This document shows, in pieces, positions 266 through 48,626 of a stretch of DNA of 64,000 nt. The stretch lies in assembly GCA_045837725.1 (NCBI GenBank), contig JBEWZL010000121.1:1-64000 (forward strand). Direction: 5' to 3'. This DNA is from Vermamoeba vermiformis (Eukaryota). Under the pieces are notes generated by a model. It saw only the letters and a list, made by a program, of their open reading frames with translations. It searched no databases and had not been told where the DNA came from. Numbering within the stretch: position 1 is the first letter of the stretch; each line of letters opens with the position of its first letter. The translations under genes were made by a program, and so were the position numbers.

Positions 266-3200
266 TTATTTTTTCTTCAATTGTTGCTTCATCAACTCAA
301 GTTTCTTCTTTTCTATCTCTGCATTCTTCTTCTCAAGTTCTCGACGCTTTTTCTCTTCTTCCATTCGCTTCTTCTCAGCTTCTTGTCGCTTCTTGTCAGC
401 TTCAGCTTGCTTCTTTTCGAGCTCCTTTTGTTTTCGGTCAAACTCTCGCTGCTTTTGTTCTGCTGCCTGTGCAGTTTGTTGAGCTTTCTTAAGATCTTCT
501 GCACGCTTTTTATCAAGCTCTTTCATCTTTTTGTCTGCATCAGCTCGTGCTTTGTCCATTTCCTTCTGCTTTTTGACCATATCAGCAGCGCGGCGATCTG
601 CGTCCTGCATCTTTCGTTCAAGATCTCGTTGATTTCGCTCTTGTTCTTCCATTTTACGCTCAAATTCACGCTCTCTTTGCTGTTGACGCCAAGCTTCCTC
701 CTCCTCTTCGCGACGTCTGTTGTCCTCGTCTAATTGCTATTAGCAATGCATTTTTATGATAAATTCTACCATACCTATTTCATCCTGAATATCAGATTCT
801 ACACTTTGAGCATCCCGCGGAGTGAAAACCCACTGCAAATTAAGTGTGCAATCTAAACTTCGAGCAGACAGATTCACTTCGAACATTAGCACTGCGCCAC
901 CACGAACAAGCGAGACCTATGAACTGTTAACTCACTATCAAGCATTCACTTTAAACTTACACTAACTTGCGGATTGGTGAAATGACCAAGCGTGAAACTA
1001 GAATCGTTGGCAGGATTAGGGCGAATCAAGATCTCTTGCACGCAATCCTTAATGGCACGGAGAACATCGATATTTTGTTTGGCAAGCGTGGTCACCCTGA
1101 GATTTGATTAGCTTGACTGTCAAAATATAACGCGTGTCTGCTTACTGCTTGATTAGCGTAGTTGGCATGTCCATAACTTTATCTTGCAAGGTGCGTTGAT
1201 AATCGAATTCTGGATCTTGGAAAGCTGGCGAAGTGAGCATGAAGGGCCAATCAACCATTACATCAATGTCCTTGTCAATAACGAACTTGACTTCTTCATT
1301 GAGTTGTGCAAGGTGACTGTCAACTAACGTAACAAAATGCTTCTCGACGAGTGGACGCAAGTTAAGTAGAGCTTCGAGCATTGGCTTCAGCTTTGGAACG
1401 TTGTTGAAATTGAAAAGAGTGTGCCAAGAGTAATTCAATATTAATTGATTTCCGTCAACCAAGACTTCGTAGCCTAGCTGACGGGCACTATCAAGACGAA
1501 CGAGCAACTTTTTAAATTGCTGCAGTAAACTCTTCACCGCAGGGATTTCCAACAAGGCTCGAACGCTGCAGAGCAATACAGTTAATTACATTGGTACCTA
1601 AACAAGCAACAAACATACCCGTTAGCTCCAAGCAATGTGTTATCGAGCACAACTCCGCTCAAGTTTGACAACGAGTGGAACTTTGCTTTCGAGCTCTCTG
1701 CGATAAACTCAGGGTGAGCCAAGATGGTTGCCCAATCAATTTCGAAATTCCAATCGAGGCCAGTAGCTGCAACGAACTTCTTTTCGAACGCAGAGATGAG
1801 CTGGTTGATGTCGTACTTGAGCACTGGGATTTCAGCTTCGAGCAAGGGCAGTAAGTCGTACTTCCACTCGCGGTTCTTAGTGGCTAGCTGGTTCAACGCA
1901 GGCTTGGCAATGATTTGTTTCTTGCTGGCATCATATTCGAGTTGTACGCCAAGACCAGAGGGTTGTAATTCGATCAGCACGCTATCCACCTTGGCGTTCA
2001 CGATGTCTTTCGATGTCGGGTGCTCTCCCAATGTAGCCAAGCCGCCCAACAGTGCGTAGCTGAAGCTGTTGAACAGATCGCGAATGTACTTGGAGCGATC
2101 ACGAGGAGATTCGGTGCCGAAAGCGTTATCGCTCAATAAGAAGGCCGTTGGAACATCGACGGTGATAACCTTTCCAAAGACAGCCTCGAGATTCTTCTTT
2201 AGGTCATTGAAGCCTTGTGCAGTGTCATGCAATGCAATGTCGATGACCAAGCCATAAAGATCCTCAACCACGTCTTTAAGATCCATTTGACGAGCAACAG
2301 CCTCCATTGCACCATTAACGCCTTGCTTATTCAGAACAATCTTGATATTAGTCTGAGCACTATCCGCGAACTTCACTTGGTAGTAACCATCAATATCATC
2401 GACCGCAATAGTGACCTATTCAGCGTTAGAAGTGGATCCGGATCTGGGTTGCGTGCGAGATCTTACCTTCTTCAGTAACTTTCCAACGCGGGCTAGACCA
2501 ACAGGGTGCACGCAAACACTATCCAGAGACTTGACGAGTGCCTTGCCGAACTTGTCGCTCAAAGTGTTGAATGTATTGTACATCGGGTCACATCCGAGGC
2601 GCTTGAATTCCTCGGATCCCAGGTAAGTCCTACACCGATGTTTAAATAAATGTGTTATAATATGTATGTAGCACGTACCAATCAATTTCAAATGAGAAAT
2701 CGGGCAGATATTGGGTCAATTTACTAGTGTGACCAAGGAATGCAACTGCTGCTCTGTACTTCCACAAAGGAATCGAGATATTCAACAAATACTCGATGTT
2801 ATTTTGCAGCGCTTTGAATCCGTCTATAATTACCGGCAGTTAGAATTGCGTGAATAATAGGGGGCGTTTAACTTACTACTAGTGAAGCCATCTGTTACCA
2901 CTAATGTCTCGCCTAGTTTTTGGAGCGGTGCAGAGTACGTCGTGGCCACCAACTTGATCGTGTTGATTTGCGAGGTGAACAATTGCTGACAATTTGGATA
3001 GACTCGCACGATGCTCAATACTGTATCAACCACGACCTTTGCAGATGCGAGGAAGTTGTTCAAAATGCTTTCTTGTTCTTTATCGTCGTGCTTGTCAAAG
3101 AACTCTTTGTTGAGACGTAAACCGCTCCAGTCAATTTCAACTCGCATTGGTTGGCCACACTTTTGGCTCAACTCGGCTTCCCAGCGTGCGATGCGCGACA

Positions 3201-6200
3201 GACCCTCGCTACTAAAGAAGCGTTAATCAAGGCATTAATAGTAGCATAACATACTATTCGGCGGTCGCAATAGTCAAGACTGAATCCACCAAAGGCTTCA
3301 TGTAGTTCAAACTTTCTTTGGCGTAGGTCAAGGCCAAGTTGAACGCCAATTGTTCGGTAGGCATCAAATAGTCGACTGTGTAGTACTTCTGAACATAACC
3401 TCTTGCCAGATCGTGAAGGTTATCACGCTCGCAATCGTATGTCACCGTAACGAGCTTCACGTGGCTCTTTATCGTGCCGTTGTTTTTCGGGTGTTGAAGC
3501 GTTGCGCTGAGGTTATTTCTCCACAACGAGTTGATGTTACTAGCGAGCTGAGTGATGTACGATGCACGCTGCGCTGCGCTGTTGGACAAGAACTTCGGGT
3601 GGGAGATAAATTGCTCATAATCAAGAGCAAAATTGATGTCGAACTGGAAGGTGTTCTTCAGGTGTACCGAGAGGTCATTGAGAAGCTGCTGAGCCTTGTG
3701 CTGGGCTGTTCGAATGCCAAAGCACAACAAGTCGTCGAGTTTCTCCAGAACGTGATACAAAGTATCTCTACGCTGAGCGGACGATAAATTAATTGTCACT
3801 TTCACAAGTTTGGAGTCGGGCTGATATGTGAGCATGTAGAATGAAGACTGATTGCCGTTGTACGGAGCATTCACTTTGTTCTCTGGGTCATAGGTGAACT
3901 CGATCGCCTTGATGCTATTAGTAATGAATTCACCGTTGACCGGGTCTTTGAACAAGCTATCCAAACTACGGGAGGATTAGATATGAGACAAGAATAGATT
4001 CGACAGCGTACCTGACAGATCGGAGGACTCTAGTAGCGTACGAAGATGAGAGTTCAACGATCAGTCGCTCTCTTTCAGTACCGTTGAGTGCAGTGAATCC
4101 AGGTTGTTCCAAGAAAGACCAATCGATCTGAGTTTGGAGATCTTTTGCCGTAGGTGCGTCTTTAATTAAGCTATCTCGAAGTTCTTGAAGCTTCTGGGTA
4201 GCGCTGCGCTTAGCCATGTTGTCAAAGAGACGCAAAAGCTCTTTGATTTTGTGCATCAAGTTGTACAAGCTGCTGTCGTATTTGTCCAAGTTAATGGTGA
4301 ACAGAAGAGTCTTTGTATCGTTGTTCAACTCCAAACTGTAGAATCTCTCGTGCACTCCCAACGATGTGTTATCGTCAACTTTGTTATCGGGTGAGTAGGT
4401 GAAGACAATGTTGGCGATGCGCTCTTGAATCGCGGCCTTAATCATTGCATCCTTGCATAGCGACTGCACACTACGAAAGAATTAGATTGACAGGTCTTAT
4501 CACGTGCAACTTACTTATCGTTGGCATTGAAAAGGAACGAAGCAATGGTGTTCTGCGCCAATCTGGAAATGCGATTTGATCTCCAATCCAAATCTTCTTT
4601 GACGAATCGCTCGTGCGTGGCAAACGACCAATCGATATCTATCTTCATGTCAAAACCAACGTCTTTCTTGAAGCGTGTCTCGATGTCCGAAATTGTTTTG
4701 TACGATGTACGTTTGTCTTGAGCAAGTCTCACGTTCAACAAGTTATCCAACTTGTGACCGATATAATAGAAGCTCAAATCAAACTTGTTCATGTTGATAT
4801 TGACGCGAAGAGTGCCTTCTGAGTCCAACACGAGCTCGTAGTGGTTTGAATATTGATTGTCGCCTGAGGCAACCTTGTTTTCGGGGTCGAAAGTGAAGAC
4901 GATCTTCTTAAAACGAGAGGCCACGGCCTCTTTAATAATTTCGTCCCTGCACTTGGATTGGAGCCTACAAGACGATTAGATGTATTCTTTAGAGGGACCG
5001 TAAAACTTACGACTCATTGTTGTTTAAAACGAAGCTCGGAATTGTTGAACGGTATAACTGCGAGATAATTCGTGAATAACGCTCCAGCTGGCTGTAAGAC
5101 CTTTGTCCCTCTTCGAGGAAGTTGTTATGCTTGGTAAAAGCAAAGTCTATCTCGATGGGCAGCGCGATACCAGTCTCGTTTTTGAATCTGTCCTCGATGG
5201 GCTTGATCGCTGCCTTGGATTTACTCATCTCCTGTTCAACACGAGTATCCAATAGAACTTCAATTTTCTGATTAAAGTTCGTCAAGCTATTATCAACTGC
5301 CTTCGCGTTGACTATAACTTTGAGGAGGCCCTCGGCTTCATCAAGGCCAACGGAATAATTTTGAGCATAGTTTGCCATATTGTCGTTGATGGTGTCGTCA
5401 AAGTCAACGCCGATTTCAACGCTTCGGATGCGCGAGAGAATAGCTTGCTTGATTACCGAGTCGTTTGACAAGTCACCCAAACTGCAATAAGACATGTCAG
5501 TTACCACATTTGTACATGCGCGGCACTTACCCGTTGTTCCTATTCAATATGCACGCGCTAATGTTAGCTAAAGGATCAAGAAGTCTCTTCTTCTCGTAAT
5601 CTGACTTGGCAACGAACTTGGGATGGTTGATAATGGCATCCCAATCCACGGTAAGAGTGACGGGACCAACTTTCTTGATGTAGTCTTCACACTCTTTAGC
5701 AATCTTCCTCTTAACTTCCACAAGAAGAGGATTCTCGGCTAATTTAACCTCTTGCGGAGCCGGTTGAGGAACAGGAATCGGAATGGGCACTGATGGTAAA
5801 GTGACGGGAAGTGGCGTTTGTGTGTTGGTTGGCGTTTGAACTGATGGGGCTGGCGTAAGTACAGGGGTAGGCAACGGTGTAGGGGTAACGATCGAAGGCT
5901 GCGGAGAAGGTGTTGCAAAATTATTGACAGGCATCAAAGCAGCAACTGGCAATGGTTCGATGGACTTCTGGCTGGCCAACAAGGCTTTTTGAGCTCTTTC
6001 TGCTTCTTCTCGAGCACGCTCAACTTCTTTTTGCTCGCGTTGAATACGTTCAAGCTCGCGTTGCTGCTCTTGCTCTAGTTGCACGCGACGAGCACGCTCT
6101 TCTTCGTCGCGTTTCCGTTCCTCCAACAAAACACGCTGCTTCTCTTCATTTTCGCGAGCACGTTGGGCCTCAATTTCAGCCTTTTTGCGCTGTTCCTCTT

Positions 6201-9200
6201 CGAACTGGAGCTTATTAATGCGATCTTGCTCTGCCTTTCGTGCTTCTTGCTCTTGCAAAAGTCTATTGGCTGCATCTAGGTCAACGGTCGGCGTCTCTGG
6301 ATTATTGAGCGCGTAAACCAACTTGTCCTTCAGGTTATAAAACGTAACGTTGAATTGAGACAAGTTAACATTGACACGAAGCAATGGAGGCTGAAGTTTG
6401 ATCTCCCAGTTTTTGTCACCAACCGCGGCACTTGTCGAATTGTTAAAATCGATGCAGTAAACTATCTTGCGGAACTTTAATAACGCGTTGGCTTTCATGT
6501 CGTTGTTTTGGTTCAATAAGACAGGAATTCTACGCAAATAATTAGTCATAATTAGTACTGGCTTAATGGCACTTACGAATCATTTCCGTTCAGCAATCGT
6601 GGTAAACCCGTTTTCCAAATAGATTGAATAATCTTCGAGTAATCGTCCAGTGATTTGCACAGGAAATTTCCACTTAAAGTAAAAGACCAGTCGATCTCCA
6701 ACTCAATGGCGTCTCCAAGACTAGCGGTCAACTGGCTTTGAAGAGCAGGCAACGCTTTCATCGCATCTCTCTTCTCCTTCGCAATGCGCACGTGCAGTGC
6801 AGTCTCGATTTTCTCCAGAGAACTGTAAAGCGTATCTCCGAATTGCTTCATATTCACAGTGAACAGCAATACGCAACCTAAAACACGAGTTTAAAAAGTC
6901 TCCGGAGATTACATTGAACGTACTCGATAAGGTGACATCGTAATGCTTGCCGTAATTGCCACCAATTGGCGAGTTGACTTGATTGTCTGTGTCATACACG
7001 AAGAGAACTTGTTTGACTTGGTCTTGAATAGTTCGCTTTACGAGTTCATCCTTAGCAAGCGCCACAATTCTATTTAAATGATTAGCAAGACCGAAAGGCG
7101 AGACTTCCACTTACCCGTCGCCGGACGTTAACACGCGAGGCAAGTGGTTCTGGTGAATGGCTCGAATAATCTTCGACTGGTCGTCAAGAGATTTAGTGGT
7201 GAAATCAGAGTGGTTCGTGAACTTCCAGTCGATATCAATATCAATTGAAAATCCGATAGCCTTTGCCAAATTCTCCATTATTGTCTTCAAACCGAGCTTG
7301 GCGGCACGTTTCTCTTGTTCCGTGCGAACATTGAGCAATACCTCCATCTTTTCTTTGAACGAATACAAAGCATCGCCGTACTGCTTCATATTGATGGGAA
7401 TGTACAAATCGAAACCTGAGTTATAAATTAACACTACGTTCTTGCAATACACCGAAACTCACCTTGTAACAACAGCTCGTAATGCTTTCCGTAGTTGCCA
7501 CCAACAGTTGACGCAATTCTATTTTCAGCATCATAAGTCGCGTGAATAGAACGAATACGCTCTCTGACTGCCTCTTTAATTGTGTCGTCTTTGGCCAGAT
7601 CAGCAAGACTGAGAAAGAATTAGACATACATTGAAGGTATGATTGTGCGCATACCCATCGCCAGAGGTCATGATACGCGGGAGGTGCGTTTGATAAAGTG
7701 CTTTGATGATTTTTGACTGTTCTTCGAGTGACTTGGACGTAAAGTCAGAGTGATGAGTGAAGATCCAATCGACGCCAAGTTCGATGGCAAAGCCTAGCTT
7801 AGCGTTCAAGCTCTGCTCGATATCCTTGATAGGCTTGCCCGCGTCGCGCTTTTCTTGTTCAACACGAACATTGAACAAGACGTCAATCTTATCCTTGAAG
7901 TAGTAAAGCGTGTCCGCGTACTTGTCCAGGTTGATCCGAATGACAAGGTCTTTGCCGCTCAAGGTCGTTTCATAATGCTTGGCATAATTTCCACCAATAG
8001 GAGACGCAACTTTGTTGTCGACATCATAACTAAAGACTATACGGCAAACCTGCGACTCTATTGCGTGCCGCATAATATCATCTTTGCACATGTCAGCCAA
8101 ACTAAACAAAAAGAATTAAGTACTATATTGAAGCAATCCTAATCCTTACCCGTCGCTTGATGTTAGAACACGTAAGGCATGTGCGGTATAGACTTGCTTA
8201 ATGATCTTCGACTGGTCGTCCAAGGACTTTGATTTGAAAACTTGGTGCTCGGTGAATTGCCAATCAAGCTGGACCTCAATAAAGACGCCTATTTTCGCCT
8301 TCAAATCGGCTGCTATCTTTTCAAATGCTTGATGTGCATAGCTCTTCTCCTGTTCGACGCGCACGTTCAATAAGACTTCAATTTTGTCCTTGAAGTTGTA
8401 GAGAGTATCGCCGAACTTGTCCATGTTAATGTTTACCACGAGATTTGCGCCTTGTAAAATAGTCTCATAGTGTTTAGCATAATTGCCACCAATGGCGGAA
8501 TTGATCGTATTAGCTGGAATGTACGCCACAATAACTCGACCAATACGATTTTGAAGAGCAGCCTTCATAACACTGTCTTTGGCCAAGTCGGGCAATCTTT
8601 ACATAAGTTAGCATTTGCTAGATCCACGTACGTGACCAGACATACCCGTCACTTGAGTTCAATATCCTAGGTAAATGATTCGCATGAACGGCCTTAATGA
8701 TTTTTGTTTGGTCGTCGAGAGATTTTGATGTGAATGCTGGGTCAGTAGTGAACTCCCAGTCCACGCCGATATCGATGAAGAAGCCCAACTTCTTGTTAAC
8801 CTCAGCAGCTAGCTTTTCAAGGGCCACTTGAGTATCGCGCTTGTCTTGTTCGACGCGCACGTTCAGTAAGACTTCAATTTTGTCCTTGAAATTGTAGAGT
8901 GTATCGCTATACTTTTCGCTGTTGATGGTCACGAAGAGGGTATTTGCTATACATCATTAGCTATCAATAATGTACAAGCCGACAAGACTTACATTGCAAA
9001 GTTGTCTCATAATGCCTGGCGTAATTACCTCCCACAGGAGAGTTGACACTGTTAGTCGGATCCAACCTTATTATTACGTGATTTACTCGGCCTTGAATAG
9101 TGCGCTTCATAATATCATCTTGTGCAAGCCCAAATATACTATCAATATTAGATAAAAGTACTAGTAAAGAATGACATCATACCCGTCGCTAGTGGAAATG

Positions 9201-10054
9201 ATACGTGGGTAATGTGACTGGTAGATTTGCTTAACGATCTTTGTTCTTTCGTCCAAAGGCTTAGCGAGAAACGTTACGTCCGCAGCGAAACTGAAATCAA
9301 CATCTAAATAGAGACCCAAGCCAGATTTGCTTCGCAATTCGTCTTGAAGCTTATCCAAAGCCTGGCGCGTATCACGCTTATCTTGATCGGTGCGTACGTC
9401 AAGTACCACTTCTAACTTTTCTTTAAAGTTATGGAGCACGTCGCCATACTTATCCAAATTAATTGTTACCACAAGATCCGTGCCTGAATTCAATTAAATC
9501 AATTGAGCTCACAAAAAATCGTGCCCGAATTTAATTACCTTGCTGTTGCACAATATAATGCTTTGAATAGTTGCCTGTATTGGCGCAAATAGAATTGTTT
9601 GGATCAAACTGAAAGACGATCTGTCTGAACCTGTCGATGATCGTGCTCTTTATAATGTTATCCCCGCATAACTCTGCGATACTGAATAGTAAGACGTTAG
9701 TTCTTATCTGTCACAGAGAGTTACAGTAACGTGCTAAATTAAATTGATAATTACCTATTTACGACCGTATTTGCCGCGTTCTGAGACGTGTTCAAGAAAA
9801 TTTTTTGTTGCTCGGTTGCACCCTAATATTAACCGTAAATACTTCGGAAGCAATAATTCCTGGATTTACCTTGGAAATAAAAGAAGGGTGCGAGATAAAT
9901 GTATCCCATTTTCCAGCAAAGCTAATTGCATGCCCGATTTTTGCCTCTAAGGCTTTTGACTGTTCTGACAACCTAAATCTCGGATGAGAAACAAATTTCC
10001 TTTGTGGTTGTGTTTAACTTACTTAGCGTCAGCCGCAATACACCACGAGTCCAT
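266..10054 (-). CDS. Giant multi-exon protein with ~17 tandem ~150-aa repeats, an internal coiled coil plus Pro/Thr linker, and a C-terminal coiled coil
   Basis: Minus-strand ORF pieces join in frame through GT-AG introns at the junctions I checked (e.g. ~3255, ~2880, ~2680, ~2465, ~775). The motif (I/V)DWxF...KSLDDQSKII...HLPRIL.SSDG recurs every ~500 nt. Probable start MDSWCIAADAK at 10054; C-terminus is the E/K/Q-rich ORF 266..652. Confidence 0.8.
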
Positions 10055-25992: not shown

Positions 25993-26920
25993 ATGGCATT
26001 GAAGGGCAAAGTCGCTTTAGTTACTGGTGATCAAGAGGTATTGGTACTGGCATTGCCATCGAACTTGCGCGTGAAGGAGCCAACATTGCCTTTACTTATG
26101 TAAGCAACGCGGATGCCGCGCAGAAGGTGAGTGGATCTATCTCCTCGTCCTGAATTACGTTGCCTTATATCAATCTCATGCTTGCTACTAGACCGCCGAA
26201 GCGCTCAAAACTATAGGTGTGCGTGCACTCGCTATCCGAAACGACGTGGCGGATCTGAATGGCCATCAAGATCTCGTCGACAAAGTCCTCGCTGAATTCG
26301 GAAAAATTGATATTTTAATAAATAATGCTGGTGTGTTTGGAGGAGCTCCTCTTGGAAAACTTACCGAAGTTGAATTCGATCGTGTGTTCAACATCAACAC
26401 CAAGGTAACTAACTGCCTTGTAGCTGCATCTCCGCTTAAACTCTCTCGTATTAACGATTGTGCTTCTTAGGCCGCTCTTTTCCTCATCCAAGCAGTTATT
26501 CCGCACATTCCGTCGGGCGGATCCATCATCAACATTAGCAGCGCCGGCACCAAAGTTGCAATGCCACAGCCAGTGTACCTTGCCAGTAAATTAGCTCTCG
26601 AAGGCTTCACTGTCAGTCTTGCACGAGAGCTAGGCGCTAAAGGCATCAGAATCAACACGGTCTCGCCTGGCTACACTGACACGGACATGATGGCCGCCGG
26701 AGGACCTGACTTAGTCAAAGCTGGCATCGCAGCCTCTCCGCTCAGTCGCGTTGGTAAGGCTGTCCATCTCTCATAGCCGCGTAGTAGTACTTATGTTGTT
26801 GGTTCAGGCACTATTGAAGACGTTGGTCGTGTCGTAGCTTGGGTGGCGGATCCAGTCAAGGCCGGTTGGATTGTCGGACAAAACATCTCCGCTGCCGGTG
26901 GTGCTGTGTTGTTGGCTTAG
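25993..26920 (+). CDS. Short-chain dehydrogenase/reductase (FabG-like) with a 1-nt deletion in the TGxxxGIG motif
   Basis: MALKGKVALVTG, NNAG, YLASK, INTVSPGYTDT. ACTGGTGATCAAGAGGTATTGGT lacks one base relative to TG-x-SRGIG (~26028). Confidence 0.85.
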
Positions 26921-29823: not shown

Positions 29824-32136
29824 ATGGCTGTTATTAAGCCAGACATCGTCACCGTCCAATTATTTTATTCATCTATTAGTATAATATTATCGTGCTAAAA
29901 TATTAATATTTTGATAATATCTAATTGTTTCTTTGAACGTAATTTTCCGATGTTTCATTGCGTACTAGCTCTTCTAATCACTCATTTTAAATAGGATACG
30001 TAATTGCTGCAGTATTTGCAGTCGCGGCTACAGTTATAACATTATATTTGGCCGTTCAACACTTAAGAAACTATACTGATCCACATCTGCAACGACCAAT
30101 CGTTCGAATATTGCTTATTGTCCCTATTTATGCTATAGCATCGTGGCTATCATTAGTATTTACCGACCAAGCGCTATATTTCGAATTAGTTCGAGGCTGC
30201 TATGAATCTTATGTAATATACGTCTTTTTCAAATTATTGGTCGAATTTCTTGGCGGAGAAGACAGACTTTTGGCTCTATTTAATACAAAACCGAAGAGAA
30301 ACCATCCGCCGCCATGTTGTTGCATTAGCTATGTCCCAGGTACGTCATACAATTTTTTTTTCAATTTTTAAAAATCAATCAAATTAGAATTAATTATCAA
30401 AATCAGATCCGTTTTCGTATTTTTCAGCAAACGATCCAAATTATTTATTGTAATTAACAACCACGATATTAAAATGTCCTACCTAATACGCATGCTTGCC
30501 ACAATACTTGATGATTGCTCAATGGGTTGTAACTGACCCGCTAATTATTTTCAATAGATGGCACGTTCTACCAACGATGTTTGCAATCAATGCTGCAATT
30601 TGTGATTATTCGACCGTTGTCCGTATTGGCAGCTCTTATCCTCGAGTTTTTCCACTTGTACGATGAAGGAAATTTCAGTCCTGAACGAGGCTATCTATAT
30701 TTGACTATAATAGGTACGTTTATCGTAACATAACATACGATATATATATATTTCGTAACTAGACAAATAATTAAATTACGTTAACATAATTATTATTCCT
30801 TTTTTTGGATCAGTTCGTCGTGCTCAGTTTTAATTACTTAATAGAAGACTAATTATAATAATTATATAGATAACGTATCGTTTACTTGGGCGTTATACTA
30901 TTTGGTCTTGTTTTACGAAGTTACGAAGACAGATCTGGCTCCGTACAAACCACTCGCCAAATTCATGGTGATCAAATCAGTCATTTTCTTCTCGTATTGG
31001 CAAGGTATTATTATTGCAATGGGCTTGTATTTCAGTTGGATTCCTGGTGGCGATGTATTTGCTGGTCAATTGCAAGGATTCTTGATCTGCATCGAAATGG
31101 TGCTCATAGCGTGGATGTTCGCGAGATCATTTGGAGTAAATAACTATAAGACTAGGTAAGTATATATGACAATATAATCAGATTTTATTTAAGATTACGT
31201 GTCGTCCGAATATTTCGTCTTGACACCTCATTTGGTGCAACTTTTGTACGATTAATAATCACGTGATATTAATGCAATTTTTACGTAGCACGGGCGATGT
31301 CGAGATCCATGATCTTCGCGAAAAGCGAAGTGTTTTGGAGAATATTGCCAGCGTGGCCTCGATGCGCGATGTGATCAATGACACGGTTGAAAGTTTCAAA
31401 TCAGCGAAGATGTACGTCGATGTTGGAGATTTCGTTACGGTCTCTGTCGACGAGAAAGTCAAACGAATGGGTACGTAGCATTTATAGGCCATTCTAGTTA
31501 TTTTGACACTTTGACACTTCGTGTCAAGCACCGATTAGAGCTGCTGGTCTCGTCACTAGGTGTTATGTTTGGTTAACTCTAATATCGATTTCGTATAGTC
31601 AAACACGGCCTGCTGCAGAAGAGAGACAAGGATATGTTCAAGAAGTGGCACTCGTTTTATTTCTTTTTGATCAACAAGCCCGCTGGCCTCGTGTACTACG
31701 TTGAAAACCCGTTCGATGCGCCAGATCAATTTACAGCCTTTTCAAAGCCAAAAGGTAAGACACTAGACGTATACTATAAGTACTAAGGATCATATTAGGT
31801 TTTATCAATTTCCAACACCTGACAAAAATGTCGCATGTGGATCACGAAGGCGATGAAATTTCATTGAAAGAAAACAACAGTTTTATAACGCTAACCACGC
31901 TTAAGCCTGGCGAGAGCGAGCCACGACGATGGTACTTGAGAGCTGATGTTAATGAGACCGATGATTGGTTCTCGCTGATCGAGAAAATTGTGGGACAATT
32001 GGACAAGCACGTGCCCGTTACTGCTGAAGAGGAGTTAAGCCCTGTTGGCTCTCCTAATGTTAATAATTATAATGTGAATAATAACGTGCGAGGCGGATCT
32101 ATTCTCGACGACGATGAAGATCTGATGCTAAGTTAG
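29824..32136 (+). CDS. TMEM184/OST-alpha-family membrane protein fused to a C-terminal PH domain
   Basis: QHLRNYTDPHLQRPIVRILLIVPIYA, YESYVIYVF, KPLAKFMVIKSVIFFSYWQG, LICIEM; then VKHGLLQKR...KKWHSFYFFL...KPKGFINF...WYLRAD...DDWFSLI. Start codon uncertain. Confidence 0.85.
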
Positions 32137-32317
32137 CACTTCTCCAACAAACAATGTAATTAATAAACCTATCTTAAAAGATGACGTATTGGTTTATAAG
32201 AAGCTCAAAATATTCCTCAATAAAATTTCTAAGTTAGTACTTTTTTCAACAGGCAATAAGCTTTATCACTAACGTCTAATGTTTTATTAAACCTTGAAAG
32301 TTATGGGCAAACAAAAA

Positions 32318-35191
32318 TTAGAGTGTTTCTTGCTGGTGTTCAAAGAATGATTCTGCAAATACACGCAAGAACCAATCTGATAGCAAATTCTTTCCATTTG
32401 AAGCAAACAATATGTTTGCATCCTCCCATTGCATAAAGGCTACCTTTTGGGTATTAATTCTTGAAAGGTTAGCAAGTGATGTGTTGTCTGGAAAGTTTGG
32501 TGACAAAACCATGACAATTAGATTTTCTTCACCAAGAATGTATTTCATTTGTGGGTACAGATTGCCTGGCCGCACCTACACATGGAGTTATTCTTTGCAT
32601 AATTGGATGGTATTTCTTACCTTGCTGCTGTCTGCTTGAACATTGTGACGCTGAATGCAAAGCAACTTCTTAAATTTGCCCGATACATCATAGAGTGGTG
32701 CAATTATGTTGGCAAATTGGGCATTAACAACATTAATGGCAATGTAATGATTGACTGACAAAAATTCCACAAATTTGTCGAAGTTCTCATGCTTGACTAT
32801 TTGTTTTGGCTTATCTTCTTCAGTATCAATAGCTTTGAAGGATAAACCTTTTGTAGAAAGTCTAATAACAGCTCTCCATGATGCCTAGTAAGATTGTTAG
32901 TAGGCTAAAAGAGGCTTGTTAACTTACATAGAAGGTATTTAGCTGTTTAAAGCCTGGTAATACTCTTTCCATTGGCATGAGTACATCTTTTCTTAGAGCT
33001 GTTGCACGCAGGTATCGCAACCACAAACTTGCTGCTGTTGCCTCCTGCAAGAATTATGCCAGCATCATTATTTGGATCACCAGCATGAAATATGACAGTA
33101 TTCGCTTTTTCTGTGGCTTCCTCGTTGATTCTTGAGCGACCATACACCTTCAATGCACTTTCAAGGATTATTGTAAACTTTACTCTAGCAATGTTGTGTG
33201 GATTCACTTCATTCCGAACGCTGCCTTGATATGATGGTATTGCTTCTTGGATTATCTCTTTTGATAGTGAGGAGAAAGGGATGGTGTACTGTCTTTGCTC
33301 ATTTGCCTGCTGAGCCACTTTTTGCGACGCTGGTTGTTGGAAATGAAATGGAATGATGAATCCAGCTGCTTCAAGGTCCTCATAGCAGCGTCTGTTTTCC
33401 CAAAACATTAGAAGTTGACTCTTTTGCAATGCAGAAAACAAAGTCCAACAGTAGTGTGTTCCATTTTTTCTCTGTCAAATTTCCATCAATTTCATTTCTA
33501 ATGTCATTAAGTGTAAATTTAGCTGTTGCCATAGCTTTTCTAATTGGTGCAATCTCTGCAGTTGTTAGCTTGTCTTTATCAGCAAGATTTAGGTCTTTGA
33601 GGAGCATAACCAAATTTTCAATTGCCCTAGGAATACCACATGCAGATACCCAAAGCTCATGCAATTGAGTTGACAGTTCTTTATTGAAGCAGTTAGTGCC
33701 TGCATCAGCTGAATACAACTTCTTTTTCAGCACTGTCGTCACAAACTTCACTTAAGTATTTTCGCTGGAGTAGTGGATCGATTGGCAGATAGGGGACCAG
33801 AAAGAACTTAGATTCATCTCGAAACTTGGTCAATCTACCCATATGCAGGCCCACCTGGGAGCTGTTAGCAAGTTGTCAATGAAAAATAGAGCCTACCATG
33901 TTAATTATGAAGGTATGTCTGTGTAGATGTTCCAATAATTCTTTAGCTATTGCACAGGCCAAGTTTTTGCCTGTGGCAGTTATTTGAGTAACAAATCCCT
34001 AAACATGATTTAAGCTTATAACAACTGAATTATAATTCAAACTTACCTGAATTTCATCAATGTTAAGGACAAGCAGTGGCATTGGCCTCTCAGTGTGGTT
34101 TGCAAAATTAGGCCAGCTAGTCTTGCCCCTCACCAGAGACACAAAATGCTGAGCAAGCATTACTATGCTCATCTTCTTCAATCCATCTCTGTCAGCATCG
34201 TCAAAACGAGAAGTAATGCCACTAATCAGAATTGCCTTGCAGACTTCAAATGAACGGTTAGCAGCTAATAGATATTTGGAGGGATACTTACTCTCTTGAA
34301 CTTGCTGTTCTGTCGCTTTAGTGACCCCTTCAAGTGCACGTCTAATTTCAACATTTAGGTTGTCTGCATGGACCGTGATTATAGACGCTGAAGTGCCAGC
34401 ATCAAACAAGCGTAAGAGGAAATAGGCTCGTTTCTTTTGATCGTCGGTGCCAGATTCTAACGCAGTTTCTATTTGCTCTTCAACGTCTGCGTTGATTGAG
34501 TCGTCCAGTTTAGGAAGGCCAGCCAAAAATGAGCCAACAATGAAAGGATGACGGAAGACTTGCACGATCCATTCAACCAAAATTCTCGTTTTGCCAAAGC
34601 CGGGTGCAGTTGTTGCGACAGTTACTACTGGCTTCGTGCTGGTATAGAGCGAGCCATAAGCGTTGCAAAGCAAAGTGAAGAGTGCGTCGTGGCGATCGAG
34701 AAACGGCGGCGCTACGCCCCACTTTTCTAATTGCAACGAATACCACTCCGGACCATTATCACCCGCGATGATAGGAAATAAATGGCCTTTGGGTCCTTCG
34801 ATCACTTGTTGGTGCTGAGCAGCAGATTCCGGATTTGCTGATTTGCCCGCCTTTGTTGATTTGTTTATCTTGGGCTTTTGGGCAATTGCCGTTGTGGGAG
34901 CATTTTTAGCTCGTCGCGCAAAGGACTGGGGCGAAGTGTGCAACGATCTCGGGGTAGTTAATCTAAAAATAAATTAATTTAATTAAATTTCAAATTATTA
35001 GTATTAAACGCGAGGTAATATAGCTGATTTGGTTTACCTATTTTTTTTAAAGAGGGAACAGTGAGTTTTTGGTAATTTTGTCAGTGCAACTTTGATTTGG
35101 CGCATGCCAAATCTTTGCAAGCCTACCAATAAACGGAGTTAAGGCCTTGTAGTAATGGGACGTTATGAAAAATACCTAACAAGGCATTCAT
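32318..35191 (-). CDS. Crinkler/CR-type P-loop NTPase with degenerate PD-(D/E)xK-like C-terminus and a mitochondrial-type presequence; two apparent frameshifts (possible pseudogene)
   Basis: Walker A TAPGFGKT; Walker B LVLNIDEIQ; GIPRAIE; C-terminal NAQFAN...LLCIQ. Frameshifts near ~33752 and ~33385-33440. Confidence 0.6.
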
Positions 35192-35808
35192 GGTGTTTGG
35201 TTGGGAAACGTGCGAAGTTCCACAAACGGGCTGATCGCTGGCACTAAATTATTAAACACCTAAAAATATGTTAGGGCTCAATTGGCACCCAAACGTTCGT
35301 GTTCGCCATGTAATTTTTTGAAGTTCGTCGTGGAAGAGCAGCCGAAAATGGAAACGCGCACGTGCTGTTCTTGTTCACGCTGAAAGATGCCTGAACTCAC
35401 AGGTGAAAACTTTGTTTATGTTTGCGCGCCTGAGAACCAGGTAGCTATTCAAGTGCGATCAACCTCAGCATTCCAAATGGTTCATTTAAAATCTTTCATG
35501 GCGTCAATTTGGTCAAGCTTGACCCTAATCTGTTGCACGCCCAGTTAATACAACAATAATTGTAAATTGAACCTTCGAACGAAGTATCTAGCCGAGCTGC
35601 AGTTATATTACGAGGAAGGATTGATGGTAATTTTGCGAATCTTGATCACTTTGTTTTTCGAGAATTTTTTTCCTTTTGCAATACGGATGAACCTAATTTA
35701 ATTAATTGTAAAAGTGACAATTGAAACAAAATTAAATTTATTTTTCTAACAGGTTTAAGCGATCCAAACGCATGAAATGTTACAGATTTAACACTCAGTT
35801 TTGCTTGC

Positions 35809-36450
35809 GATCATTTAGCGTCAATAACTATAATACTAGGTAAGTGCATTTAATATTATAATACGATTTTAATACCCTAATCTAAGCACGCGCAAAAAGC
35901 GAACCGAATTTATTATTTGATGTTGGTACCTTGACGCAACTTTTGTAACGTCAATCTTTGCACAAATTCTAACACGATCTATAAATAGCACGGGCGATGT
36001 CGAGACCCACGAGCTGCGCGAAAAGCGAAGTGTTTTGGAGAATATTGCAAGCGTGGCCTCGATGCGCGATGTGATCAACGACACGGTTGAAAGTTTCAAA
36101 TCAGCCAAGATGTACGTCGATGTCGGTGATTTTGTCACCGTCTCCGTCGACGAGAAAGTCAAGCGAATGGGTACGTAGTATTAATAATCTTACATCGTCA
36201 GTTTGTGACACTTTGACACTTCGTGTCAAGTACCGATTTGACACGTTCATCTCGGACTATATGTTACGTTATAACGATTCTAATAATGCTTTAATATAGT
36301 CAAACACGGTCTGCTACAGAAGCGAGACAAAGATATGTTCAAGAAGTGGCACTCGTTTTATTTCTTTTTGATCAACAAGCCCGCTGGCCTCGTGTATTAC
36401 GTGAAACCCGTTCGATGCGCCAGATCAATTTAAGCTTTTTAAAGCAAAAG

Positions 36451-36495
<45 letters not shown>

Positions 36496-36786
36496 AAAAA
36501 ATGTGAAATTTCATTGAAAGAAAACAACAGTTTTATTACGTTAACTACAGTCAAGCCTGGCGAGCATGAGCCACGACGATGGTATCTCAGAGCTGATGTT
36601 AATGAGACCGATGATTGGTTCTCGCTGATCGAGAAAATTGTGGGGCAATTAGACAAGCACGTGCCCGTCACTTCCGAAGAAGAGCTCAGCCCTGTTGGCT
36701 CTCCTAATGTTAATAATTATAATGTGAATAATAACGTGCGAGGCGGATCTATCCTCGACGATGACGACGATCTCATGCTAAGCTAA
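35809..36786 (+). pseudogene. Duplicate of the 3' (PH-encoding) exons of the TMEM184-PH gene
   Basis: Exons near-identical to 31125-32136; introns more diverged; 36400-36505 is scrambled by indels and a poly-T tract. Confidence 0.75.
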
Positions 36787-36894
36787 CGTTTTTCTTCGCA
36801 AACAAACTGTAATAAATAAACTTATTTAAACGCATTGTACATATTTATTATTAATAATTCGGAATTTAAGGATGATTAACCATTCGACCAAGAA

Positions 36895-37812
36895 TTAAGT
36901 AGGAAGTTTTTTTACAGCGCGCGCACATCTAGTTTTTGACAACTCGACGAAAAAATCATCATCATCTTCGTCGTCAGTATCTAATTCATTCAATTCTTCA
37001 ATCTGGGCATTGAGCCGTTCGAGAGTCATCGTTTGTCTACGAATGAACTCCTGCGAGCTGGCGCTGAACGGAGGTTCTTTTGAATGCAACGAAGAGGGGT
37101 TATAAACGGTATCAGGGAAGGTATATAGTTGAGCCAGCTCCGAGTACAGCTCCTGATCATAGAGGAAAATATGTTCGATAACTTGACTTCGCACTGGAGC
37201 AAGTTCGAAGGGCTTGGCAAAAAAATCTTGGATTGGCTTTGGTACTGTCCATTCATCCATACTCGAGTGTATTTCTAGGGTGGCGATTGAGTAGAAGTCA
37301 TCCTTGCCCATTTTAACTTCATCGACGTAGATCGTGCACCCCATTTGGAATTCCCGCCGAATAACCGTCATTTCTCCGATGAATATACAAATTTCATATA
37401 AGTGTTGGAGCTTTGTATGAAGCGCCGCATTAATTGATGCCAGTATATCTTGAGAAAACTGGTCGTGTTCCGCCACAAAAAACTTTGCACTTCGGATCTG
37501 GGTGTACGTTTTTGAGAGAGGCTTGTTTAAAGACCACGAGACACTCCCGTCCTCGGTTTCCTTCCGCTTGAGCCAGCAGTTGATTTTTGCAAGAGGGTAC
37601 CCGGGTAAATCCATAAAAGTTTCAGTAAACTTGGTCCGTTTAAAAGGGCAATTCATTTGCAACATTTGCACGTCTTCGGGCGATATAGGAAAATGGATCC
37701 GAGGTCTCGTTTTAGCGAGTTCCGGGATGTCTTGAATACTCGTGCAAAAATCCTTCAAGGAAGTGGTAATAGGAGAGACTGGCTCTAATGCTACTCTTCG
37801 ATGCTCTGCCAT
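36895..37812 (-). CDS. Intronless degenerate CYTH/thiamine-triphosphatase-like protein
   Basis: FTETFMDLPGYPLAKINCWLKRKE...WSLNKP resembles the CYTH D-x-Y-Y-D...L...WLRxR...WxLK segment; the N-terminal ExExK motif is absent. Confidence 0.55.
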   Translation of the reverse strand: MAEHRRVALEPVSPITTSLKDFCTSIQDIPELAKTRPRIHFPISPEDVQMLQMNCPFKRTKFTETFMDLPGYPLAKINCWLKRKETEDGSVSWSLNKPLSKTYTQIRSAKFFVAEHDQFSQDILASINAALHTKLQHLYEICIFIGEMTVIRREFQMGCTIYVDEVKMGKDDFYSIATLEIHSSMDEWTVPKPIQDFFAKPFELAPVRSQVIEHIFLYDQELYSELAQLYTFPDTVYNPSSLHSKEPPFSASSQEFIRRQTMTLERLNAQIEELNELDTDDEDDDDFFVELSKTRCARAVKKLPT

Positions 37813-38045
37813 TGTGCTTGTGTTTGGTTTAGAAATAAATTGACGACAAAAAAGGTTGTCTTTGTCCGCAATAATTTTTGTTTTTTGCAGGTTGCGCTCG
37901 TTTTCTCGAATCACAATGTATAGGTTCATTTACAGTTTCAATGACTGAACTGGGAATACGCTGGTAGGATTGACTAACGCGTCGAAAAATTTTTCGCTGC
38001 TTGGTTTTTCGAAAAGCTTTAGCGTGCCGTCAGTAATTCAGGAAC

Positions 38046-45900: not shown

Positions 45901-48626
45901 TTGTTACGTACGTGCCGAAACCGAGCCATAAAGCAGCCAATACTTTAGAAGTCGGTGAATTGTTGGCTTCACATTCTCAATCGATCGTGGAAGTATTCGT
46001 TCGTTTTTTTTGTGCAGGTGAGCACAAAGTGGTGATGGAATTAGATCGCCACGTAACGCAAGATAAGTACCTTGCGTACTTAATTGCTACTCAGAGCAAG
46101 TGGAACATTGATGGTAAATAATTGAGAATAATAAAATTTTAACTGAATCAACAATTTTTTTAAATATTTTAGCCGTGTAATACTGGATATGAAAATCTAA
46201 TTGTATTATCCGTTGCAATTTTTAGAATTAAATTTTGATTTTTAACTTTTTCAATTATTTAGATCTTGCTTCCTACAGTCAGTATGCGCAAATAATTAAG
46301 GCTCTAGAAACGAACAAGAGAGTTAAGCATTTATGTTTGCATTGTGGCTTGCACGGTGGATTAAGGGAGGCAGATCTGTTAAAGCTTGCCACGAGTTTAG
46401 AAGCAAATAAAACGCTTGAAGCCTTGGAAATACGAGGTCAGCAAATACAAATGATCATTAATATGCATATTGACATTTAATTAGGCTTATTTGACCCTGC
46501 TGAACACGCTCTGGCTGAAATTTTCCACGTTCTAGCGCGCAAGCCCAAATTCAATATTCTCGAGCTTTGTATGTTTTATATGGCATATACGACATATTTA
46601 ATAACATTCCTTAGACGATCTAACACTTGCTACATCCGCATGGCACGCTTTTCTAGAGTTTATACGAGCACAGCCACAATTGAAACAACTGACTCTTCTT
46701 AATTTAAATGAATCCCAAGTGATCGAGTTAATGGACGCGTTACAAGACCACAACGAATTAACTGATCTCAATCTAGGAGGTATGACACGTGTCTTAACCA
46801 AGTTGTGAAAACGGACTTATCATTTTGTAGGCGAAAATAGCGGCACTTTAGAGAGCTTGAAAGCAGTCGCACGATACGTATCAAAGAGCACCAAATTGAC
46901 TAGACTCTTTTTGAACGAAGATGATTTGACGGCAACAACGGCGGCTACGGTGGCTGAAGTGATCGAAATAATGCAGAACAACACCAGCTTGTACCACGTC
47001 CCTTCTTATGGAGCAATAGCCACCAGTGAGTTTGTAAAACGGAATAAGGAGGCACATCTGGCTCGGCAAAGTAAGGCCCGTGACGAGATGGCTGCAGCAA
47101 ATAGTGGACGTTGGCAGCCACCACCACTGTTAGCCCCAAGCCTTAGCCTTGACCCGATAATTGAACAACTTCCTAATGATATAATCCGAGTCATACTATG
47201 GCAACTCCCAATCAAACCATTACTTAATTGCAAAAGAGTCGACAAGTGGTTCTACACGTTCATGAACAATGAGAAGTTCTGGCGTGGCTATTACCTGAAG
47301 TTCTTCTCGTGCATTCCTGGTGACATCTTAGCTTTGACAGACATCACCTATGGAGCCAAGTTGATGGCTGCAAGTTCAATGGATGACATTACTACAAGTG
47401 TTTGGGAGGAGATTGTGATTAATTCTTTCAGAGCTCGAATCGTTGGTTCGGATGTGTTTCCAACAAACTATTGCATGCCATCCATGGAGCCAGTCTTCCA
47501 TCAATACCCACAGCTGATTGGCACCAAACAGGCAGAATGTTCAGTCGATGTTTTTCCACCTGACCGATGGTATCATAAGACAAAGGACGCACCATATTCT
47601 AACACATGGTTCACGTTGTTTGCGAATAACGCAGCTGTTTATCACCTTGGTTTTGAGAAGCTGCATGACGGCCAGTACAACGGAATCTTACTACTTGCAC
47701 CTGACTGTCAAGTGTGGCGTGAAAGGTTCACTTACATGGTGTACATTTTTGATTGGTTTTCAGCCAAGAACGAGGCTGAATTTGCAGACAAAATGAAGCC
47801 GTTGTGCGAAGTCTACTTGACAGCTCGTGAAAATTACAATCACTGTTATAACACAATGCAAGAGCCATTCAACAAATACATTGAAGGTCTAATGAAAGAG
47901 GCAGTCAATAAGCGTCATAAAACCATTCAGGCTATCAACTTCAGAATAGAACAGTCTGCTAAAGATTATTGCAGTGAGCAGGGGATTGACCACACTAATT
48001 CAGCATCATTTATCAAAACAGTTGATAGTCTTGCAAGCTATTTCAAAGGTGCATCAGACAAGACATTTGAGACAGAATTTTCTCAGCTAAAGCAAAAGAT
48101 GCCTGTGAGGTCAGCTCTCAATCAAAAGTATGGACTTGACAATGGTCTTTTCCATAACTTTAATACATATTTGTGGAGTGCACCTAATGCTGCAGGCAAA
48201 AAAGATTTCAAAATTCATCAGAGGAACAGAAAACAGTCTAAACCAGTTGGGCATGTAGCATTGATGAAGTTGTATCGTGTAGCATTGAACTTCACTTTGA
48301 TGGCAGTGTTGAAGACTTTTTGGCCAGTTGACATTGACCATCCTGACTGTGAACTCTATCCTTTTATCAAGTGGGTAAAGGATGCTAAGACTTTGTACAG
48401 AGCCATATATTATCCAACTCATTACACTGCATTCAGCAATGTATCTGTTAGTAATGCATCTCCTGCTCAATGGCCATTGATAGCTGTTGGTTTGGCAAAG
48501 TTATTGTTGCCAACTATTATTTCTAAAGTTAATAGATTGATTCAGAAACAAGAAACAACAGAGACGTTTATGGATGAAGTAATTGGCTGTGCTAACAAAT
48601 TTTTAGTGTTTTTCAAATGTCAATAA
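45901..48626 (+). CDS. RNI-like LRR, internal F-box and unknown C-terminal domain (start not resolved)
   Basis: ALETNKRVKHLCL, SLEANKTLEALEI, NNTSL repeats; IEQLPNDIIRVILWQLPIKPLLNCKRVDKWF...FW F-box in the 589-aa terminal exon. Confidence 0.7.

Follow-up and report, generated by a model that had tools for sequence, protein, structure and literature searches.

What does the split minus-strand gene at 35191-32318 of this stretch of Vermamoeba vermiformis DNA encode, and where in the cell does its product go? The stretch (hereafter the window) comprises the 64,000 nucleotides (nt) of positions 1 to 64,000 of contig JBEWZL010000121.1 and is ordinary eukaryotic nuclear DNA, ∼40% G+C, with genes split by short GT-AG introns. 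The gene is real. It runs from an ATG at 35191 to a TAA at 32320-32318, and its conceptual product of about 838 amino acids (aa) differs from what a plain reading of the open reading frames (ORFs) gives. Our favoured reading, which we hold with evenly balanced confidence, is that this nuclear, intron-rich gene encodes a member of a small, unnamed family of P-loop nucleoside triphosphatases (NTPases) that carries a mitochondrial matrix presequence and a STAND-like switch. The protein would begin with a matrix-targeting presequence of ∼48 residues, which MPP would cut after R39-S40 and Oct1/MIP would then cut after F48. Behind it would come a nonconserved polar linker of ∼35 residues, an ASCE-type NTPase domain (Walker A GFGKTR, Walker B NIDEIQ), a helical module with C-G-I-P-R-x-I-E, and a conserved C-terminal region of ∼350 residues to which no fold is assigned. 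Such a protein could work as a nucleotide-driven switch inside mitochondria, with the C-terminal region as its sensor or effector.

The spliced N-terminus and its predicted presequence

The N-terminus is built from three 5′ exons. Exon 1 (35176..35191; all coordinates of the gene are on the minus strand) carries the ATG and encodes MNALL plus the first base of a glycine codon. It is followed by intron 1 (35175-35123, 53 nt, GT-AG), exon 2 (35038..35122), which encodes GLQRFGMRQIKVALTKLPKTHCSLFKKN plus two bases of an arginine codon, intron 2 (35037-34963, 75 nt, GT-AG), and exon 3a (34292..34962), which encodes the end of the presequence, the polar linker, and the beginning of the NTPase domain, Walker A included. 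One contig from X1, a public run whose kind was guessed as RNA, aligns on 35269-35175, 35121-35038 and 34958-34751; it skips intron 1 and fits intron 2, since four otherwise unplaced letters match an exon 3 start at 34962 (the joint lies at a skipped repeat). The same spliced contig supplies 78 nt of 5′ leader (35192..35269), which is free of ATG codons and has an in-frame TAA ∼20 codons 5′ of the start, making the ATG at 35191 the first within the leader seen. The first-pass annotation had joined three 5′ exons in frame to the same peptide, and the X1 contig bears this out.

Two further X1 contigs support intron 3 (34046-33999), both borders of exon 4 (33897..33998, 34 codons), and an in-frame intron inside exon 3 (34244..34291, 48 nt, GTAAGT...CTAAC...AAG), behind which exon 3b (34047..34243) continues to its end at Walker B. 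Distant homologues align straight over this 34291-34244 intron, with QVQE followed by ICKAILISGITSRF versus QVTDMICRQIVCQNICRRF (junction QVQE-ICKAIL). The earlier exon model, sound in its 5′ splicing, had overlooked this intron. True introns of the gene measure 42-75 nt. Because the X1 contigs lack introns, the run appears cDNA-like, with the caveat that a processed DNA copy is possible. Its source is a close relative and not the sequenced strain, with 95-99+% likeness and substitutions relative to the window.

Residues 1-78 of the spliced N-terminus contain no aspartate or glutamate, and the first 40 include nine arginines and lysines and six serines and threonines, so the acid-free, basic character noticed at first pass holds. 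The helical hydrophobic moment reaches a maximum of 0.52 (18-residue span, residues 7-24). At residues 39-48 (34920..34949), the sequence RSLHTSPQSF matches the R-10 motif of cleavage by MPP and then Oct1/MIP, and the predicted mature N-terminus is A49. PMC3128517 gives this two-step motif as RX↓(F/L/I)XX(T/S/G)XXXX↓ (arrows mark the cuts). The window protein resembles the Oct1/MIP substrates of that paper in carrying R at position -10, L/I at -8 and S at -5, counted from the predicted mature end, with an acid-free, basic stretch before them. One caveat is that processing is predicted here, and the organism's own MPP and Oct1 specificity may differ.

The motif, of which the first-pass annotation had singled out RSLHTS as cleavage-like, is kept in relatives. 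The orthologues that retain the N-terminus, P0003 and P0004 (45-53% identical), have RPLHTSVSLF and RSIQTSVQLF in the same alignment columns, preceded by a short acid-free stretch from the methionine. All three specified R-10 positions fit in three of three sequences (the window gene, P0003 and P0004), and in each the block stands at the extreme N-terminus, after 4-38 acid-free, basic, hydroxylated residues. Invariant columns among these sequences number 5 of 13 for the cleavage block, 66 of 124 for the NTPase core and 0 of 44 for the intervening linker. Conservation at the cleavage region thus forms an island next to a drifting linker, which is polar, lysine-rich (KPKINKSTKAGK), ∼35 residues long and not conserved. 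On this evidence, the NTPase protein is fairly probably targeted to mitochondria.

A rival view is that the basic extension serves some purpose other than import in a protein that stays in the cytosol or nucleus, for instance as a signal for the nucleus or nucleolus or as a site of binding or regulation. Presequences usually drift fast, and an R-x-L-H-T-S...F-A-K/R block this conserved at ∼50% overall identity could reflect some other constraint. The lysine-rich linker behind the block is compatible with this view, as is the lack of the block in distant members, from which it follows that the family overall is probably not mitochondrial. However, a block confined to the extreme N-terminus in all three orthologues, preceded by residues free of acid and rich in basic and hydroxylated side chains, with the R-10 positions in place each time, argues for import, and a conserved cleavage region next to a drifting linker is the pattern of processing sites. 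We consider the non-import view rather unlikely.

How might a presequence have arisen, if more distant family members lack one? Six more distant family members have acidic N-termini (first acidic residue at position 2-21) and are without the R-10 motif. P0002 (56% identical) likewise has an acidic N-terminus, with its first aspartate or glutamate at residue 9, yet contains one match to the pattern. The starts of these proteins are automatic ORF calls, and upstream exons may be absent from them. Given that the more distant members are without such an N-terminus, it is reasonable to suppose that the presequence was gained by one branch of the NTPase family. The window itself provides no presequence control: the neighbouring flavoprotein reductase begins directly with its FAD-binding motif.

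The NTPase domain, its relatives and the C-terminal region

Both Walker motifs named at first pass are present and conserved. Walker A (APGFGKTR, 34584..34607) is conserved family-wide, with G119, G121, K122, T123 and R124 invariant in 12/12 aligned relatives, and Walker B (LLVLNIDEIQ, 34047..34076) closes exon 3b, its NIDE.Q being retained in all sequences that extend so far. Also invariant or nearly so in the 12 relatives are E-W behind the P-loop helix and, ∼30 residues N-terminal to Walker A, PPF(L/F)(D/N)R. Farther downstream lie CGIPRAIE (33611..33640, invariant C-G-I-P-R-x-I-E) and NPHNIA (33187..33204, invariant N-P-H-N). On the strength of this motif order (upstream Arg, Walker A, Walker B, CGIPRxIE, NPHN), we provisionally place the domain in the STAND/KAP/AAA_16-AAA_22 group of ASCE NTPases. 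Features shared with that group are a Walker A of the form GxxxxGKT, a Walker B of the form hhhhDE, an Arg ∼30 residues before Walker A (PPFLDR), and a downstream helical module with an invariant G-I-P-R, together with weak profile and language-model hints. Unlike members of the group, the protein reaches no family cut-off, has ∼175 residues between Walker A and Walker B, is without C-terminal repeats (WD40, TPR or LRR), and begins with a predicted presequence in place of an effector domain. One known case, a STAND-class NTPase that a presequence directs to mitochondria, is comparable by analogy only; its domains and lineage differ, and no sequence relation is expected.

The family is an orphan, rare and without a name in current databases. 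Among 1,835,955,588 representatives, 20 proteins were found at E ≤ 0.001; all are short ORF calls on short contigs, and none of the 10 looked up is named. The best Pfam links are to AAA_16 (E 0.0022, 1 of 20 members) and AAA_22 (E 0.094, 1 of 20), and the top Pfam match of the window exon-3 translation (E 0.11, 12.4 bits) is to neither. PADLOC and NCBIfam assigned no membership to any of 15 sequences, and PDB sequences searched with one sequence and two profiles gave nothing significant. Atlas language-model neighbours are unnamed clusters from Mucoromycota and Basidiomycota, followed at 0.83-0.84 by bacterial clusters of AAA_22, KAP and AAA_16; for these scores the reliability line is 0.9, and all neighbours cited here, including those of the C-terminal region below, fall beneath it.

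Wider searches added little to the family. Only one of 255 pattern matches in metagenome contigs was confirmed, and it is a short contig belonging to an already known distant member. Viral contigs gave 34 and 36 pattern matches with none confirmed, and no match was found on plasmids by tblastn. Genome contigs gave 155 pattern matches and a single confirmed one, a bacterial protein with CHAT and AAA_16-like domains that is 32% identical over 82 residues; hhalign returned a probability of 76% over 71 columns around Walker A. Positions 660-9699 of the bacterial contig L001, from a metagenome-assembled genome, hold first a gene for this CHAT-domain protein (841 aa, its AAA_16-like NTPase weak) and, immediately 3′ of it, an ORF longer than 1699 aa whose product has an AAA_16 NTPase (E 2.9e-9), a layout that resembles a conflict system.

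Could the gene instead be a Crinkler/RHS (CR) toxin module? PMC5289972 and PMC11064341 describe a CR layout of NTPase, helix-turn-helix (HTH) and restriction endonuclease (REase). The first-pass annotation had proposed such a protein, its header replaced by a mitochondrial presequence, which would act on mitochondrial nucleic acids or as a selfish toxin. The order of NTPase, helical region and C-terminal domain is compatible with the layout in PMC5289972, and the gene shares with the CR effectors described there a P-loop NTPase followed by further domains, restriction to eukaryotes and a patchy distribution. Its position between two ∼1-kb direct repeats is a sign of local rearrangement. The Atlas neighbours of P0028, an orthologue that covers part of the C-terminal region, come from taxa in which CR proteins are reported (Mucoromycota, diatoms, oomycetes and Euglenozoa). 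They begin with unnamed Mucoromycota, diatom and oomycete clusters at 0.84-0.88, and lower down include RHSP (16% of members, 0.80), RNA12 (0.80), PDDEXK_3 (24% of members, 0.78) and ATPase_2 (0.78). The RHSP and PDDEXK_3 neighbours are hints, useful as leads for the Crinkler idea only.

The nuclease part of that proposal was not confirmed. The candidate nuclease-like stretch in the exon at 32621..32884 reads FANIIAPLYD...LLCIQRH, where P0028 has FADVIAPLYD...ILCIQCC, and the candidate Asp and E-x-K positions are unconserved even between these two. No PD-(D/E)xK family was matched at E ≤ 10 (Pfam, seven C-terminal sequences), so the two degenerate PD-(D/E)xK-like segments of the first-pass annotation find no backing. 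An AlphaFold2 (AF2) model of P0028 from nine rows had a predicted local distance difference test score (pLDDT) of 39.1 and was unusable. Pfam searches with five window exon translations, 20 family members and seven C-terminal sequences gave no match to Crinkler, RHSP or PDDEXK; for RHSP, this held at E ≤ 1 for the 20 members and E ≤ 10 for the seven C-terminal sequences. Nor did PADLOC or NCBIfam return a match of this kind. No CR header was seen in Pfam for the exon-3 translation or the 20 members, and the N-terminus consists of a presequence-like peptide and a linker. Unlike CR effectors, then, the gene is without a header, a detectable REase signature or a profile match, and within the 64-kb window it has a single copy and no paralogue. 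It shows no transposon-like feature, and plasmids and viral contigs hold no match to it. Among the literature matches listed for Crinklers together with mitochondrial targeting, none mentions a crinkler, which does not show absence in print. We cannot tell whether the gene is of Crinkler/RHS descent, lean against it and have not filed the gene there; the CR module with a swapped header strikes us as quite unlikely. Of the first-pass reading, the mitochondrial presequence is supported and the CR architecture is unproven.

Several observations tell against our favoured reading of a STAND-like, mitochondrial NTPase and limit the confidence we place in it. The R-10 pattern is short, and by a rough estimate ∼1 in 10 random N-termini of equal length would contain it. 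A stretch of ∼175 mostly helical residues parts Walker A from Walker B, which is atypical for STAND or AAA+ proteins, and no NTPase family reached its Pfam cut-off with the window exons, the 20 members or the seven C-terminal sequences. The exon-3 AF2 model (20 sequences) averages a pLDDT of 65.6 and drops under 50 along the Walker A strand. Foldseek returned nothing for it at E ≤ 0.001, and VIA-wide matched only its long helices (best Z 6.3, none reaching Z 8). The bacterial link may be generic P-loop likeness: the C-terminal profile does not match the CHAT protein (probability 0.1%), and because a search of the bacterial genome containing L001 with the family HMMER profile came back empty at E ≤ 0.01, a bacterial origin is not claimed. 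The STAND-like reading of the invariant CGIPRAIE and NPHNIA depends on a possible resemblance to GxP and MHD-type motifs. Finally, no X1 contig covers the 3′ 1.5 kb of the gene, and the sole X1 contig over intron 4 uses the second AG, giving a 62-nt intron (33835-33896) and an exon that starts at 33834; this acceptor leads to a stop after six codons and a 363-aa product. Use of the first AG, 10 nt behind a branch-like CTAAC, would give a 42-nt intron and an exon that starts at 33854, and would preserve the frame and the G-L..G.L residues common to P0028 and P0029.

The large exon, its frame breaks and the 3′ exons

Beyond exon 4 lie three overlapping ORFs in three different frames, a pattern compatible with frameshifts or with short introns. 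The large exon (32928..33854, 927 nt) has a predicted start at 33854. It is one open frame in P0026, P0027, P0028 and P0029 and is broken three times in the window copy. The four orthologous ORFs cover it at 44-53% identity with 93 invariant columns; P0026 is ∼97% identical to the window within the in-frame pieces, and P0027-P0029 are 44-53% identical to P0026. A profile search with the large exon recovered only these same four ORFs among 8000 scored candidates. At break 1 (33734..33737), GACA stands where the orthologues have one codon (K). At break 2 (33385..33388), CTGC corresponds to a single codon in P0026 and to nothing in P0027-P0029. Break 3 (33045) is an extra G between ...GIILA and EATAASLWLRYL. 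Each break is thus one added base relative to the orthologues, with conserved flanking residues, and a literal reading of the assembled copy ends at residue 406. The frameshifts seen at first pass are therefore present in the assembly, at sites where all orthologues are open.

Three explanations were weighed. The first is that the frame changes are newly evolved short introns. GT-AG pairs at 33751-33709, 33419-33392 and 33080-33035 (43, 28 and 46 nt) would give an open coding sequence of 2403 nt and restore an 800-codon frame, and their sizes come close to those of the true introns of the gene. However, the 28-nt intron would be shorter than any confirmed intron here, and splicing would remove residues that are invariant in the four orthologues, such as E-V-C-x-K-V..K.L and I-L-x-E. 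We rejected the short-intron model, now highly improbable, because the skipped stretches are conserved, plain coding sequence in the orthologues.

The other explanations are that the copy is intact in the organism, encodes the full ∼838-aa protein and has three assembly indel errors, or that it has been inactivated. A neighbouring gene is also broken. In the short-chain dehydrogenase gene (25994-26100, +), a one-base frame break near 26030 falls in the glycine-rich nucleotide-binding motif (VALVTG / SRGIGTG), whose halves ...KGKVALVTG and SRGIGTGIAIELAREGA are read in successive frames; the remainder of the gene matches adh_short well. This break bears on the quality of the assembly.

An intact gene would explain why the in-frame pieces are free of stops and share ∼97% identity with the open P0026, and why every splice site is preserved, and an error-prone assembly would be expected to break other genes too, as in the unrelated, otherwise well-preserved dehydrogenase gene 6 kb away. 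Several findings point the other way. None of the four breaks, that of the dehydrogenase included, lies in a long homopolymer; no indel was seen relative to the X1 contigs over the ∼1 kb they cover; and the Ostalpha, glutathione-reductase-like and kinase neighbours are unbroken at the resolution of Pfam matches. Three breaks in 2.5 kb also look enriched (rough Poisson P ∼0.02, assuming one break per 4 kb), and the truncating acceptor used by the only contig over intron 4 favours real decay. We judge an intact copy to fall just short of an even chance. Overall, real inactivation and assembly error of this copy have about even odds, and the copy in the assembly is possibly dead.

The gene continues 3′ of the large exon in two further exons. 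The intron after the large exon (32927-32885, 43 nt), which follows ...NTFY, occurs in the same place in P0028 and P0029, and the next exon (32621..32884, 88 codons) is 41% identical to the matching part of P0028. The intron before the last exon (32620-32576, 45 nt) and the border of the last exon (32318..32575, 85 codons plus TAA) are predicted only; no orthologous ORF was recovered for the last exon.

Genomic surroundings and significance

The neighbours in the window encode an Ostalpha-family transporter, a TKL-type kinase, the short-chain dehydrogenase, a glutathione-reductase-like flavoprotein, a purple acid phosphatase, a BTB protein and a Ras-like GTPase. Two direct repeats of ∼1 kb bracket the NTPase gene. 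The left copy (31121..32173, +) comprises 3′ exons of the Solute_trans_a (Ostalpha-family) gene, its stop and the first ∼40 nt of trailer; the right copy lies at 35805..36826 (+). Between them, 812 of 996 aligned columns are identical, which shows an old local duplication or insertion around the NTPase gene. Exon-like stretches are 88-98% identical and intron-like ones far less so, and since the exon-like parts are so much better kept, the right copy may be part of a gene that is, or was until recently, live. Nothing resembling a transposon was seen around the NTPase gene, and an Rfam scan of the window returned no RNA family.

RNA runs X4-X6, which carry the same species label, placed 3, 7 and 6 reads in the window, none of them on the NTPase gene; this says nothing on its expression. 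All of the reads are confined to 31700-32235 (+), the last exons of the neighbour, at 90-99% likeness. Their substitutions are consistent, so their source is a relative and not the sequenced strain.

Elsewhere in the window, positions 1145-9493 (-) hold an 8-kb run of abutting or slightly overlapping ORFs of 99-350 aa with no Pfam match, which may be a single very large gene with short introns or frame breaks. Other long ORFs without a Pfam family lie at 46809-48623 (+, 605 aa) and 36898-37929 (-, 344 aa).

The locus carries a lesson for annotation, in that short in-frame introns and frame breaks can hide a gene of ∼840 aa, and its frame breaks flag a possible indel problem in this assembly. 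The family to which it belongs is nearly invisible in databases and is a clean example of "dark" eukaryotic protein space.

A more specific and more doubtful account of the favoured protein is that one branch of an undescribed, lineage-restricted STAND-like family gained a presequence processed by MPP and Oct1 and became a mitochondrial nucleotide-gated sensor or effector, the window copy having just been inactivated or mis-assembled. It might serve, for example, in surveillance of mitochondrial nucleic acids or of selfish elements, and descent from a CR-type or prokaryotic conflict module is possible. We regard this full account as rather unlikely to hold as a whole.

Switch-type ATPases are usually sensors in immunity or conflict systems, and organelles are, to our knowledge, home to very few of them. 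Should the import signal prove genuine, a family of switch-type NTPases as yet without a name would operate inside the mitochondria of a poorly studied eukaryotic lineage, and the family would offer a lead to surveillance at the level of the organelle.

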